Below, piece after piece: positions 35,394 through 42,482 of a stretch of 64,000 nucleotides of DNA. The notes under the pieces were generated by a model. It made no database searches, was not told the origin of the DNA, and saw nothing but the letters and a program-made list of their open reading frames with translations. Numbering within the stretch: position 1 is the stretch's first letter; each line of letters opens with the position of its first letter. Location of the stretch: positions 32,001 to 96,000 of the forward strand of contig JAVBPX010000001.1 in assembly GCA_031549365.1 (NCBI GenBank), read 5' to 3'. The stretch comes from Alphaproteobacteria bacterium. GTDB taxonomy: Bacteria; Pseudomonadota; Alphaproteobacteria; Rs-D84. The translations under genes and the position numbers were made by a program.

Positions 35394-37550
35394 ATGCCAG
35401 AAAAACTGAGCACTATTCGTCGCAGACTTCGAATACTCCGATATACGTTACGCTTTTTCTTTCTGGCGTTGAGCATTATTTTAATATCAATTGTTATTGC
35501 TCTGTCGCAATTGGATTTGGAAAATTTTCGCGATGAACTTGTAGCTCAAACAAAAAATCAAACAGGATTAAATGTTCAAATTGACGGCACAGTATCATGG
35601 CGATTATCATTGCGTCCGAAAATTATTTTAAATGATATTAAAATTGCAAACGCAGATTGGGCAAAAAATAAAAACGGGTTAACTGCTGATCAATTGATTG
35701 TTACATTAAATTTGTTTTCATTGTTTACTTCCAGTCCATCTGTCGAAGAATTACAATTAATTTCTACAAAACTATTTCTAGAAATGGATAAATCTGGAAA
35801 ATATTCCATGGAAATCACAACCCAAAAAGATTCAAAAACCGAAGAAAAAATTGAACATCCACGCTATCCTTTGGATCCATTATCTGAAATCCGTTATTTA
35901 TATTTGGACCGTCCCGAAATTACATATATAACGCCGGATAAAAAGTGGTCATTCAAACCAACGACTGTACGAATCAGTCATGCTGAAAATCGATCCAACA
36001 TGGAATACAAGGGTTACTTGATGTACAACCAAGAATTATACCCATTCCACATTGTTATGGAAAAACTGGATCGCGACCGTGGTGTTTATCCGTTACGTAT
36101 CCAGCTTGATAATTCCGACATAAATTTCGTCGCACATTTGGCGTTGGAAAAAACCAGCTTGATGCCTATTGATTTTAATATTACTGGGGAATTGGATCGC
36201 ATTGAAATACATTTGGGCTATTTGGGGATAAACGGAATACCGGATATAACACCATTAAAATTCAGCATGAATGCCGGATTGGATCATAATAAATTAACAA
36301 TAAATAAATTAAAAATTACCGGTTATAAAAACGATGTTAATGCAAAATTAATTTATGACTGGTCGAAAAAGAAACCAACGCTATCTGGATCAATAACTTC
36401 TAATTCTATTGATTTGGGATTATTATTTCCAAAATTATACGGACATCCGGATCCTGAAAAACCATCGCCAGACCGCCCATTAAACGTATTTATGGATACG
36501 CCGATATATCCTGAATTATTGGCATTGATGGATGCAAATATTTCTGCGGATGTAAAAAATTTACGCATATACCGTTTAATGGATGTAAAAAACATAAAAA
36601 CAAACATATCGCTGGAAAATAATAATTTAAAATTAATCGCACAGTCCGATTTTGCTTCCGGATCATTAATGGCCGCGGTTAACGGATCATTAAACCGTGA
36701 TGGCAAAAGTTTATCTGCATCGGCATCCGGAATTGGCACACATATAATGGCCGGCGAAATTTTGGCATCAATCCATCATGCTGATGTTTTATCTGGAATG
36801 CCTGGTGATTTTCAATTTTATTTCACCGCCAACGGTCACGATTTATCATCATTAATGTCATCCGTTACTGGATCGATTCGAATTTATTCAACTGATCGTG
36901 GCATCGCGCATGACGCATCATTTTTATTCATGGGTCAGGATTTTTTAACATCCGTCCAAAAAAACGTCAAAGATATATTTGTTGATTCAAAAAATAAAAA
37001 TGATGTTCGCGTCCAATGTAGTGCGATTAATTTAAAAATTCGAAATGGATATGTTGAAACAAAACGCGGTATTGCGGTCGAAAGTAATTTGGTTAATATC
37101 CTGGGCGAAGGATATGTTGATTTGGGTCGTGAAAAATTACAGGCCGCTATGGTTACCACCCCCAGCAAGGGCTTAAAACTCAGCCTGTCTGGTCAAATCG
37201 TTGATATGATGGAGGTCAAAGGCAGCATCGCCGAACCAACAATATCCGTAAATCAATCCGGCATATTAAACAAAACATTAACATCAACTGCGGCTGGATT
37301 GGCACTGGTGCCATTGACTGGTGGGATCAGTATTGCTGCCACTGCGGGATTGGGATTGGTTGCTGGGACATTTTTATCATCGTGGTTAACGGACGAACAT
37401 CCATGCCAAACGGCATTGCAATCCGGCGCACCATCGCATGACGATGATCCGGAATTTATGTATCGTCCGGTTGATGATTTGGCCCATGAATTTTTCATCA
37501 ATACCCAAAACCAAATCAAAGACAGATTTTCCAAAAACAAAAAAATCTAA
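35394..37550 (+). CDS. AsmA-family protein
   Basis: N-terminal TM helix plus AsmA N-domain (TGLNVQIDG...LRPKIILNDIKIANADW), beta-rich body, C-terminal hydrophobic helices. Confidence 0.8.
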   Translation: MPEKLSTIRRRLRILRYTLRFFFLALSIILISIVIALSQLDLENFRDELVAQTKNQTGLNVQIDGTVSWRLSLRPKIILNDIKIANADWAKNKNGLTADQLIVTLNLFSLFTSSPSVEELQLISTKLFLEMDKSGKYSMEITTQKDSKTEEKIEHPRYPLDPLSEIRYLYLDRPEITYITPDKKWSFKPTTVRISHAENRSNMEYKGYLMYNQELYPFHIVMEKLDRDRGVYPLRIQLDNSDINFVAHLALEKTSLMPIDFNITGELDRIEIHLGYLGINGIPDITPLKFSMNAGLDHNKLTINKLKITGYKNDVNAKLIYDWSKKKPTLSGSITSNSIDLGLLFPKLYGHPDPEKPSPDRPLNVFMDTPIYPELLALMDANISADVKNLRIYRLMDVKNIKTNISLENNNLKLIAQSDFASGSLMAAVNGSLNRDGKSLSASASGIGTHIMAGEILASIHHADVLSGMPGDFQFYFTANGHDLSSLMSSVTGSIRIYSTDRGIAHDASFLFMGQDFLTSVQKNVKDIFVDSKNKNDVRVQCSAINLKIRNGYVETKRGIAVESNLVNILGEGYVDLGREKLQAAMVTTPSKGLKLSLSGQIVDMMEVKGSIAEPTISVNQSGILNKTLTSTAAGLALVPLTGGISIAATAGLGLVAGTFLSSWLTDEHPCQTALQSGAPSHDDDPEFMYRPVDDLAHEFFINTQNQIKDRFSKNKKI

Positions 37551-37885: not shown

Positions 37886-39658
37886 CTATCCCTTCTTGCG
37901 AATTTGGATGTGCAATTCACGCAATTGTTGTTCGGAAACTTCAACTGGAGCGCCCAACATTAAATCTTGGCCACGTTGGTTGGTTGGAAATAAAACAACT
38001 TCACGTAAATTTGGTTCACGACATGCCATGCAAACCAAACGATCAATTCCAAATGCACATCCGGCATGTTGCGGCGCACCATATTGGAACGCAGTCCACA
38101 TACCGCCGAATTTTTTGCGAACAACTTCGGCATCGTATCCGGCAATTTCGAATGCTTTGACCATAATTTCTGGTTTATAATTACGCAATCCGCCCGAACA
38201 AATTTCCGCACCGTTTAAAACCATGTCATATTGGAATGCTTTTATTTCCAGTGGGTTTTGGTTTAACAATGCATCCAATCCGCCCTGGGGCATTGAAAAT
38301 GGATTGTGCGAAAATGCGACCTTGCCTGTTTCTTCGTCCAATTCATAGAATGGAAAATCAACAATCCAGCAAAATTTATAATCGTTTTCATCAATCAATT
38401 TTAAATCTTCGCCCAATCTGATTCGGATTTTACCAGCTGCCTTGGCGGCAATGTCTTTTTTCTCGCATACGAAAAATACAGCATCGCCCTTGGCAACTCC
38501 GGTTGTTTTCATAATTGATTCAATTTCTGATTCCGATAATGATTTTGCGATTGGTCCTTTGACCTCGTCCGCGAATGCCAAATATCCCAATCCACGCAAT
38601 CCGATTTCTTTGGCAAATTCGCCCATTTTATCGAACCACGAACGCGCCATACCTCCCGCAGTTGGTGCTGGGATTGCACGAACAACCGAGCCTTCTTTCA
38701 CTGCGTCTGCAAATAATGAAAATGCGGATTTTGCAAACACATCTGATACATCCGAAATGATAATTGGGTTACGCAAATCTGGTTTATCAATACCGTATTT
38801 TTCAATTGCTTCCATATATGGAATGCGTGGAATGTTTGAATCAACCGTACATTTGCCATCTGTGAATATTTTCATCATTTCTGGGATTAATGCTTCACCA
38901 ACTGCAAAAACATCTTCTTGTTCCACAAAAGACATTTCCATATCCAATTGATAAAATTCCAATAAACGATCCGCACGCAAATCTTCGTCACGAAAACAAG
39001 GCGCAATTTGGAAATAACGATCAAATCCAGAAATTTGAATCAATTGTTTATATTGTTGAGGCGCCTGAGGCAAAGCATAAAACATCCCATGATGTAAACG
39101 ACTTGGTACCAAGAAATCGCGAGCACCTTCGGGACTGGATGTTGTTAAAATCGGGGTTTGAAATTCTTGGAATCCCAAATCCCACATTTTATCACGCATC
39201 CATTTAATCATGTGATTGCGTTTTGTAATATTTTTTTGTAGTTTTTCACGACGTAAATCAATGTATCGATATTGAATACGTAAATCTTCTGGAAATTTTT
39301 CGTCGCCAGCAACCTGAATTGGCAAAACCTCTGCCATTGATTGAACGCGGTATTCGCTGACGGAAACTTCAATCTCACCAGTTTTTAATTTTGGATTTAT
39401 AACGGACACATCACGCGCAACAACGTTACCAATAACTGTAATCACAGATTCGTTATGAATTTTTTCCAAATCGCGTAATGCTTCATTTGATAAATCAACA
39501 ACACACTGAGTCATTCCATAATGGTCGCGTAAATCAATAAACAATAATGATCCGTGATCCCGTTTTTTATGCACCCAACCGGATAACGTTACAACCGTTC
39601 CGACCTGCGCCTTGGTCAATTCTCCACAAGTATGGGTTCTGAACTGATTTGCTCTCAT
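37886..39658 (-). CDS. aspS: Aspartyl-tRNA synthetase, probably non-discriminating (Asp/Asn)
   Basis: RTHTCGEL, RDHG (His at the non-discriminating determinant position), PEGARDF, LPQAPQQYKQL, FRDEDLRADR, FGIDRL; start ATG 39658 with AAGGTG SD. Confidence 0.97.
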   Translation of the reverse strand: MRANQFRTHTCGELTKAQVGTVVTLSGWVHKKRDHGSLLFIDLRDHYGMTQCVVDLSNEALRDLEKIHNESVITVIGNVVARDVSVINPKLKTGEIEVSVSEYRVQSMAEVLPIQVAGDEKFPEDLRIQYRYIDLRREKLQKNITKRNHMIKWMRDKMWDLGFQEFQTPILTTSSPEGARDFLVPSRLHHGMFYALPQAPQQYKQLIQISGFDRYFQIAPCFRDEDLRADRLLEFYQLDMEMSFVEQEDVFAVGEALIPEMMKIFTDGKCTVDSNIPRIPYMEAIEKYGIDKPDLRNPIIISDVSDVFAKSAFSLFADAVKEGSVVRAIPAPTAGGMARSWFDKMGEFAKEIGLRGLGYLAFADEVKGPIAKSLSESEIESIMKTTGVAKGDAVFFVCEKKDIAAKAAGKIRIRLGEDLKLIDENDYKFCWIVDFPFYELDEETGKVAFSHNPFSMPQGGLDALLNQNPLEIKAFQYDMVLNGAEICSGGLRNYKPEIMVKAFEIAGYDAEVVRKKFGGMWTAFQYGAPQHAGCAFGIDRLVCMACREPNLREVVLFPTNQRGQDLMLGAPVEVSEQQLRELHIQIRKKG

Positions 39659-39683
39659 ATTTTTCACCTTTTTGCTTTTGATA

Positions 39684-39729
39684 TTTGTTAAAACAAGAAT
39701 AATTATAAATTATTTCCTGTTTTAACAAA
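39684..39729. repeat. AT-rich hairpin element, copy B, inside the aspS leader
   Basis: TTTGTTAAAACA-AG-AATAATT-ATA-AATTATT-TCC-TGTTTTAACAAA. Confidence 0.65.
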
Positions 39730-39793
39730 AACAGAAACAATCACAATGCTTTCAAATTTTGATTTTATGCACCGAATCATTTCTGATTGTTAA

Positions 39794-39945
39794 ATCCTCT
39801 GCAAGGACGTCTTTCAAACGCGGTGCCACCTTGCTTCGTGCTGGAATACCAACACCTTGATCAAACGTATCGTGTTCAAACGGCGGGTTCTAATCGGATT
39901 AACCTTTCTTCCCGCATGCTCACCGGTGTTTGCCGGGTCAATGCA
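39794..39945 (-). ncRNA. T-box riboswitch, ultra-short Stem I (actinobacterial ileS-type) architecture, Asn specifier
   Basis: Minus-strand RNA: Stem I UGC-AUU-GA-CCCGG-CA[AAC]A-CCGG-UGA-GCA; Stem II GCGGG-AAGAA...AGAA-CCCGC; IIA/B pseudoknot CGU-UUGAAC-ACG / GUUUGA; Stem III GUGUUGG-UAUU-CCAGCAC; antiterminator GCAAGG-UGGCACC-GCGUUU-GAA-AGACGU-CCUUGC; upstream of an aminoacyl-tRNA synthetase. Confidence 0.9.
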
Positions 39946-39954
39946 ACTGATCCT

Positions 39955-39983
39955 ATTCTGTTACCAATATTAAAAAAAATCAA
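39955..39983 (-). promoter_or_regulatory. Putative promoter of the T-box-aspS transcript
   Basis: TTGATT-17 nt-CAGAAT; the implied start at about 39948 is just 5' of Stem I. Confidence 0.55.
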
Positions 39984-40002: not shown

Positions 40003-40033
40003 CAAATAAACCCCGGTTTCCCAGGGTTATTTG
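40003..40033 (-). terminator. Terminator after gyrB
   Basis: Minus strand CCCTGG-GAAA-CCGGGG-TTTATTT. Confidence 0.75.
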
Positions 40034-40040
40034 ACTTGAA

Positions 40041-42482
<2,442 letters not shown>

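Follow-up and report, generated by a model that had tools for sequence, protein, structure and literature searches.

We describe a leader RNA that probably acts as a T-box riboswitch in front of aspS, the gene for aspartyl-tRNA synthetase (AspRS), on a 64,000-nucleotide (nt) stretch of DNA from an apparent alphaproteobacterium (contig JAVBPX010000001.1, positions 32,001 to 96,000). This whole stretch is called the window, and coordinates are those of the window unless a locus name precedes them. The leader is housed on the minus strand, in the 383-nt intergenic region between gyrB and aspS. With a probability of about 0.7, it is a functional class-II-type T-box riboswitch whose ligand is tRNA-Asn (the asparagine tRNA) and whose output is translational. 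A first-pass annotation, made from the letters of the window, had proposed an ultrashort-Stem-I T-box at this position. That identity is upheld by a match to the Rfam model RF00230 and by covariation among ten homologous leaders, which support a T-box with an ultrashort Stem I, a specifier in the apical loop and what would be a translational (class II) architecture.

The T-box core as a whole spans 39800-39950 on the minus strand, where RF00230 matches over model positions 1-219 with 51.9 bits and an E-value of 1.4e-10 (in a 501-nt search) or 6.0e-11 (in the whole genome). The covariance-model search that the first-pass annotation had suggested gave a divided answer: the match runs from end to end of the model, but its score stays under the Rfam gathering cut-off of 93, which speaks against the assignment, and a default Rfam scan of the window reported nothing at that gathering score. 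The shortfall arises because 72 Stem I model positions are replaced by 2 nt. A chance resemblance with no T-box behind it, for which the low score might be cited, has a negligible probability given the E-value, the homologues found before the same gene in 22 places and their strong covariation, by which chance is already refuted. Folding agrees: the 311-nt leader has a z-score of -3.26 and beats all 100 shuffles, and its minimum-free-energy structure holds all five elements of the T-box.

These five elements, listed in the first-pass annotation, were all recovered on the minus strand. The ultrashort Stem I (39917-39945) consists of a GA motif (kink-turn or K-turn), a 4-bp helix and a 6-nt apical loop (39932-39927). 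The UGA and GAG strands of the GA motif align to the corresponding motif of RF00230, and, at the sequence level, columns G12, A13, A31 and G32 are invariant or nearly so in alignment A1 (ten leaders with the window's full architecture, the window included). Within the apical loop, the predicted specifier AAC (Asn) occupies 39928-39930 (alignment A1 columns 21-23) and is followed by an invariant A. Stem II (39883-39915) contains a purine-rich internal loop formed by S-turn strands and shows covariation in helix 3. It is followed by a variant IIA/B pseudoknot (39861-39882), made of a 3-bp IIA hairpin with a 6-nt loop and a downstream 6-nt partner. IIA was aligned by cmscan and has 4 bp in relatives (helix 5); for IIB, we infer from the sequence a pairing of 6 nt in the window, including two G-U pairs. 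Stem III (39838-39855), with 7 bp, is present in the minimum-free-energy fold and leads into a GAA linker. Finally, the discriminator (39801-39834) comprises helix A1, the 7-nt bulge UGGCACC (39828-39822) and helix A2.

Judging from model matches in related genomes, the leader is a member of a lineage-wide family and not an isolated case, which corrects the first-pass annotation. The scan of its own and related genomes recommended there returned a single match in the host genome, where the 12-nt T-box core is also single-copy, and of 61 genomes from the same family and order (the window's own counted), 27 have an RF00230 match at E <= 0.001; none of the 61 reaches the gathering cut-off. By family, matches occur in 20 of 36 genomes in f1, 1 of 4 in f2, 0 of 14 in f3, 0 of 1 in f4, 2 of 2 in f5 and 3 of 3 in f6. 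The 30 matches divide by downstream gene into 22 before aspS, five before an archaeal-type AspRS gene and three before tyrS. In the 22 aspS cases the following open reading frame (ORF) is 56-100% identical to the window's AspRS. The five others on AspRS genes precede a paralogue of about 420 amino acids (aa) that is an aspartate--tRNA(Asn) ligase of archaeal type (NF003483, 396-448 bits against a cut-off of 353, 5/5), and the tyrS assignment is given by NF006330 (391-396 bits, 3/3).

Covariation across alignment A1 carries much of the argument. The consensus fold that RNAalifold computes from it includes Stem I, Stem II, IIA and the discriminator. Of 276 cells, 94.2% pair; the figure for shuffles is 81.3%, and sliding the partners lowers it to 33-54%. 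Both sides changed in 17 of 28 pairs, against a shuffle mean of 7.9, and none of 500 shuffles reaches 17. The structure was derived from the alignment itself, which somewhat favours it, and the sequences are related; the slid-partner controls nevertheless indicate that the signal is real. In detail, six of the seven pairs in Stem I helices 1 and 2 are altered on both sides, as are four of the five in Stem II helix 3, so the covarying Stem II pairs claimed in the first-pass annotation are borne out. Columns G40, A41, A42, A45, A57, T59 and A60-A63 of the Stem II loop are invariant. Discriminator helices 6 and 7 are 100% paired, with three pairs altered on both sides, and the T-box core does not vary in the ten full-form leaders (10/10) or in the sixteen short leaders of alignment A3 (16/16). 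The window, itself one of the ten, has the common residue at all 35 invariant columns of alignment A1.

Outside the family and order, the system appears to be rare. In a class-wide sample of one genome per family, a match at E <= 1e-4 turned up in just one of the 150 other genomes (G165, before aspS, with an AAC loop), in a search whose stricter filters missed the known positive G013. Among the genomes searched, the predicted T-box system is confined to a clade of 0.7-1.1 Mb alphaproteobacteria.

The specifier can be read from the same alignments. The loop columns of alignment A1 follow the pattern N-N-[A/G]-A-C-A, in which A, C and A (positions 22-24) are invariant and the triplet is AAC or GAC in all ten leaders. 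Short leaders (A3, n=16) have the same triplet after three loop bases, so that all 26 leaders show AAC or GAC at the corresponding column. One leader, in G006 (L012), was omitted from A3 and from this count of 26 as a 102-nt cut missed its Stem I; read by eye, it carries GAC, and the second enzyme was not found in that genome. Before the bacterial aspS, AAC occurs in 12 leaders, and a second AspRS- or AsnRS-like gene (AsnRS, asparaginyl-tRNA synthetase) was found in none of those genomes. GAC occurs in nine, with the second gene present alongside four and not found alongside five. Leaders of the tRNA(Asn)-type AspRS, where the second gene is present, have AAC in four of five and GAC in the remaining one. 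All four genomes that possess both the second gene and a detected aspS leader have GAC on aspS, and two of them (G017 and G026) carry both leaders, with GAC on aspS and AAC on the second enzyme gene. The predicted specifier position therefore varies with enzyme type, as expected for a true specifier.

On this basis the loop triplet AAC is most likely the specifier, with tRNA-Asn(GUU) as ligand; that is, the predicted specifier reads Asn and not Asp (aspartate), a second correction to the earlier annotation. A conserved purine follows T-box specifiers, and the invariant A 3' of AAC/GAC agrees with this. The host's tRNA-Asn(GTT) ends in G73-CCA, which fits the UGGC of the bulge. Since the 6-nt apical loop holds four overlapping triplets, another one (CAA, AAA or ACA) might be read, or tRNA-Asp might bind by way of a mismatch; tRNA-Asp(GTC) also has G73 and is the main substrate of AspRS. 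We regard a ligand other than tRNA-Asn as very unlikely. Only the AAC/GAC position tracks enzyme type, while ACA is invariant in all ten full-form leaders whichever enzyme follows, and CAA and AAA are missing from most homologues. Moreover, tRNA-Thr(CGT) has A73 and does not match UGGC, which argues against the invariant ACA as specifier.

The gene content of the host gives such a specifier a physiological setting. No AsnRS gene (asnS) was found in the host genome, where the best match to the model has 99.5 bits (cut-off 414) and the asnS-model matches are two genes resembling that of lysyl-tRNA synthetase (LysRS) and the AspRS gene itself. Asparagine synthetase B (asnB) was likewise not found in this genome (97.6% complete). 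Both gatB (533.9 bits) and gatA (487.5 bits) are present above their cut-offs. The indirect route to Asn combines a non-discriminating AspRS with GatCAB. Because neither AsnRS nor an asparagine synthetase was found and GatA and GatB are present, AspRS should also have to make Asp-tRNA-Asn, and sensing tRNA-Asn would then be physiologically sensible. The T-box most likely senses uncharged tRNA-Asn and controls a non-discriminating AspRS.

How the leader would act on aspS is a harder question, since the window is unusual in its spacing: the T-box and the start codon are 141 nt apart, compared with 25-47 nt in most relatives. Folding places two minus-strand hairpins in this spacer, namely H1 (39732-39785, -15.5 kcal/mol), followed by a U-run, and H2 (39684-39729, -15.6 kcal/mol), a near-perfect palindrome. 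The Shine-Dalgarno (SD) region of aspS, AAGGUG, was located at 39665-39670 by reading the sequence and by folding. When the RNA is folded from the T-box as far as the ORF, the minimum-free-energy structure (-48.5 kcal/mol) pairs the bulge's CACC with the SD bases GGUG, the GC next to it with GC, and UUUGA with UCAAA, all across H1 and H2. Without uncharged tRNA, the T-box core (bulge CACC plus flanks) would be paired to the SD region (GGUG and the bases upstream of it) across the two hairpins; uncharged tRNA-Asn would hold the discriminator helix and free the SD; and the leader would raise AspRS when tRNA-Asn is uncharged. We infer from this an output at translation initiation through pairing of the SD with the T-box core, which is the weakest step of the reading and is still ranked first.

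Relatives offer a mixed comparison. The unconstrained fold lacks the antiterminator in 22 of 27 leaders. The T-box 5' core is the partner of the SD window in 15 of the 27 (the window among them, over 4 nt), and the 3' strand is its partner in seven; the latter, classical arrangement is clearest in three leaders of the second AspRS gene (L008, L015 and L019). In ileS T-boxes the sequestrator pairs the SD with the 3' strand, a part that the T-box 5' core is predicted to take in the window. Four of the 27 leaders have, ahead of the start codon, a stretch of 7 nt exactly complementary to the bulge, and three more have one of 6 nt downstream; neither the 6- nor the 7-nt complement was found at any of the 539 gene starts of the window's own genome.

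Several observations tell against a T-box that reads Asn and regulates translation, most of them bearing on this last step. The window's SD matches the bulge over 4 nt only. Although the 5' strand of H1 holds a 6-nt complement of the bulge region (39774-39769), the best bulge complement in the spacer is ordinary, and 32.5% of 539 background regions pair equally well. The SD-paired state is just 1.2 kcal/mol better than the forced antiterminator (-45.4 vs -44.2 kcal/mol), and the 311-nt fold forms the antiterminator without ligand and leaves the SD unpaired. In many relatives the forced-ON folds keep the SD window partly paired, which makes for an unclean contrast between ON and OFF. As to the comparative evidence, related genomes are non-independent samples, and no relative of the same genus was found (the best AspRS identities are 66% and 60%). 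Lastly, GAC occurs in five aspS leaders (six with G006) for which no second enzyme was found, so gene content explains the specifier incompletely.

The long spacer could mean that the T-box still binds tRNA and no longer regulates, the 141 nt being an insertion that uncoupled it from a now constitutive aspS. The shorter spacing of most relatives, the placement of the SD right behind the T-box in G018 and G001 (the closest leaders of full form), the near-equal ON and OFF energies (-44.2 and -45.4 kcal/mol), the free SD beside a formed antiterminator in the full-length fold and the existence of a second copy of H2 in the genome would all suit such an insertion. It is nonetheless unlikely: nothing is lost from the specifier loop, the S-turn strands or the T-box core, and all 35 invariant columns are kept; H1 and H2 are compact, which brings the spacer ends close, and the predicted SD-T-box pairing spans both; and five other leaders that keep their T-box are also long-spaced (66, 64, 83, 84 and 111 nt).

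The second copy of H2 is a 40-nt sequence, 92% identical, at L113:374-413, with compensatory changes in the stem. It sits between convergent ORFs, as expected of a bidirectional terminator-like element. We considered whether the spacer is a repeated mobile element and rejected this, as there is one convincing second copy and it covers H2 only. The spacer also contains a 25-codon upstream ORF (uORF, 39780-39703, minus strand) that starts in H1 and ends in the loop of H2. Near its end it has two Asn codons in a row, and an AGAGGA lies 14 nt before it; the other long-spacer leaders showed no sign that it is conserved.

These features invite a model of transcription attenuation, in which transcription would end at H1 with its U-run, or at the terminator-like H2, unless something under T-box control, such as translation of the uORF, prevents it. 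The U-run after H1, the position of the H2 twin between convergent ORFs and the two Asn codons that end the uORF are consistent with it; in addition, the UCCUU of the 3' strand of helix A1 is able to pair with GAGGA, and the AGAGGA of the uORF adjoins that strand. We judge attenuation to be quite improbable on several grounds. No terminator overlapping the antiterminator 3' strand was found by scan or by folding, and neither H1 nor H2 overlaps this strand, which leaves no room for a direct switch. At -9.8 to -11.5 kcal/mol, the antiterminator is much more stable than the UCCUU/GAGGA hairpin. When the 5' strand of H1 is blocked, H2 is still intact in the fold, and a free bulge pairing with that strand would invert the logic; a three-hairpin relay, with the bulge taking the H1 5' strand and the H1 3' strand taking the H2 5' strand, was rejected because H2 forms regardless and the logic is inverted. 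The SD-to-AUG distance of the uORF is 14 nt, it shows no sign of conservation, and a terminator scan called neither hairpin. Finally, one metatranscriptome contig (run X2) spans 39503-39833, from the 5' end of aspS across both hairpins into the discriminator, as far as the first base past the start of helix A1. This fits read-through weakly, as DNA carry-over is possible and contigs show no transcript ends. No RNA-library contig covers 39834-40214, a lack of cover that is no evidence either way. Both runs, X1 and X2, carry the label invertebrate gut metagenome. Translational control by a tRNA-Asn-responsive T-box remains our preferred reading.

Leaders in related genomes depart from the window in several ways. 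Sixteen have T-boxes of about 90 nt (L010, L013, L014, L016-L018, L020-L027, L029 and L030; for example L014:1501-1602, minus strand), which consist of a K-turn hairpin with an AAC/GAC loop, a conserved A-rich linker and the discriminator, and are without Stem II, IIA/B and Stem III. Within them 95.6% of cells pair and 9 of 17 pairs are altered on both sides, a number that none of 500 shuffles reaches. In L003, L021, L027 and L030 the SD region is an exact 7-nt complement of the bulge, 25-35 nt past the T-box and ending 2-4 nt before the start; weaker forms of this complement occur in most aspS leaders. The pattern suggests that the SD and the 3' end of the tRNA may compete directly for the bulge.

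Three leaders of NF003483 ligase genes (L008:1501-1720, L015:1501-1730 and L019:1501-1721) have AAC and an extensive Stem III region, and their sequestrator is of the classical kind, formed by the SD and the 3' strand of the antisequestrator. T-boxes before an archaeal-type tyrS in three genomes of the same order (L002:1501-1733, L006:1501-1670 and L007:1501-1638) have a UGGUACC bulge and U-tract terminators, and one of them scores 90.4 bits. A gene for tRNA-Thr(GGU) lies immediately upstream of the aspS T-box at L013:1628-1701, L022:1628-1701 and L024:1609-1682. A broader reading of all these leaders is possible but doubtful. According to it, an order-wide, undescribed T-box system of small-genome alphaproteobacteria governs AspRSs, with an Asn or Asp specifier according to the tRNA served and an SD (GGUGCCA where it is clearest) that mimics the tRNA 3' end and pairs with the bulge; the forms of about 90 nt would be derivatives still under selection despite the loss of Stem II, IIA/B, Stem III and the Stem I platform, and the window's leader would be the ancestral full form.

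The surroundings of the leader agree for the most part with the first-pass annotation. Upstream on the minus strand lies gyrB (40041-42449; NF011501, 1157 bits, cut-off 796), and the gyrB terminator that had been proposed was found as a terminator-like hairpin at 40009-40028 with eight pairs (five of them G-C), a 4-nt loop and a T-rich tail. The promoter claimed just upstream of the leader fared less well: a sigma-70-like scan of the minus strand found no site, and a -10-like hexamer at 39967-39972, read by eye and without a properly spaced -35, is a candidate only. The downstream gene, predicted to encode an aminoacyl-tRNA synthetase, is aspS of bacterial type (37886-39658, minus strand; NF001750, 783.4 bits, cut-off 443). 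Its likely start is the ATG at 39658, as relatives align from the residue after it; the ORF list starts at a GTG at 39667. Convergent with aspS is a 718-aa ORF (35394-37550, plus strand) with weak similarity to the AsmA/YhdP family (45.8 bits, cut-off 412). Outside the window, a tRNA-like sequence at L112:1587-1656 (minus strand; RF00005, 28.6 bits, gathering score 29) sits directly upstream of lysS (NF001756, 560.6 bits); ARAGORN gives it a 2-nt 'anticodon', reflecting a shortened anticodon loop. The host has two LysRS-like genes.

The host genome has 911,163 bases and is 97.6% complete. By record titles and GyrB clusters, rather than by a tree, the host is a 0.9 Mb alphaproteobacterium with kin labelled Rickettsiales, in line with the alphaproteobacterial origin first proposed. 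The closest AspRS relatives in named genomes, at 57-66% identity, come from metagenome-assembled genomes titled Alphaproteobacteria or Rickettsiales, and the nearest Atlas clusters to GyrB are Pseudomonadota. A model built from the short leaders (R1) matched 5 of 80 named aspS loci at E <= 0.001. These five AspRS relatives (L031, L032, L036, L039 and L041), which bear the same aspS leader, are titled Alphaproteobacteria or Rickettsiales. Among metagenome contigs the best AspRS identity was 60%, and only 1 of 80 aspS loci matched model R1. A tblastn search of gyrB and the AsmA-like neighbour against the named aspS loci gave no match, and gene context thus adds nothing to taxonomy.

Translational T-boxes with an ultrashort Stem I are described as 'mostly identified in Actinobacteria' in a review (PMC7583486). 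The leader shares with the actinobacterial ileS T-boxes of Mycobacterium and Nocardia (PMC7583486, PMC12647780) the lack of a distal platform, a specifier atop a short K-turn hairpin, an S-turn Stem II, IIA/B, Stem III, a purine linker, a discriminator with a 7-nt bulge and an aminoacyl-tRNA synthetase gene downstream. It differs from them in host (Pseudomonadota rather than Actinobacteria), gene (aspS rather than ileS), predicted specifier (Asn rather than Ile), the 3-bp IIA with its 6-nt loop and an SD 141 nt downstream behind two hairpins.

Compared with the canonical RF00230 T-box (Firmicutes, transcriptional), the leader keeps the K-turn, the specifier, Stem II, IIA/B, Stem III, the T-box sequence and the UGGN bulge matched to the discriminator base; 72 Stem I positions, including the platform for the tRNA elbow, are missing, and no terminator overlaps the antiterminator. 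An Asn-responsive T-box of Clostridium acetobutylicum reportedly controls tRNA-dependent asparagine formation, as Saad et al. are said to have described in 2012 and 2013. As in the window, an Asn specifier there governs the enzyme that charges tRNA-Asn with aspartate for the transamidation route. That T-box has a long Stem I, is transcriptional and heads an operon in a Firmicute, whereas the window has an ultrashort one before a single aspS in an alphaproteobacterium.

In an older and broad sense, proteobacterial T-boxes are not new. The survey of Wels et al. 2008 (PMC2494555) reports T-boxes in 2 of 125 proteobacterial genomes, on leuA of Geobacter and Pelobacter in the delta group; these are typical T-boxes on a biosynthesis gene, unlike the ultrashort Stem I on an aminoacyl-tRNA synthetase gene in an alphaproteobacterium. 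T-boxes of glyQS are naturally without Stem II according to PMC7583486; the relatives of about 90 nt resemble them in lacking Stem II and IIA/B and differ in having no long Stem I or elbow platform, and the window keeps Stem II. TBDB confined the use of its class II model to Actinobacteria and to class I hits whose Stem I is truncated, and the TBDB supplements may list proteobacterial entries. A search of full-text literature, which did not cover those supplements, found no T-box described for Alphaproteobacteria or Rickettsiales, and none of this class described for aspS. The view in the first-pass annotation, that the class was undescribed in Alphaproteobacteria or on genes other than ileS, accords with this result, and the lineage-wide set of such T-boxes seems to be previously undescribed.

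T-boxes have been treated as a Gram-positive device, and the form with an ultrashort Stem I appears here in Alphaproteobacteria, on a different synthetase. A default Rfam threshold misses this class of T-box altogether. In a 0.9 Mb genome, a specifier that reads the non-cognate tRNA (Asn) which a non-discriminating AspRS also charges would be a compact answer to the indirect Asn pathway. The related leaders can be seen as natural experiments: the Asn/Asp specifier swaps with enzyme type, canonical and bulge-pairing sequestrators are both represented, and the forms of about 90 nt do without known auxiliary tRNA contacts. If the order-wide reading were true, competition of the SD and the tRNA NCCA end for the 7-nt bulge would replace the classical strand swap, and the forms of about 90 nt would run counter to the idea that truncation of Stem I makes Stem II indispensable. 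Such natural variants could make the minimal requirements of tRNA sensing testable.

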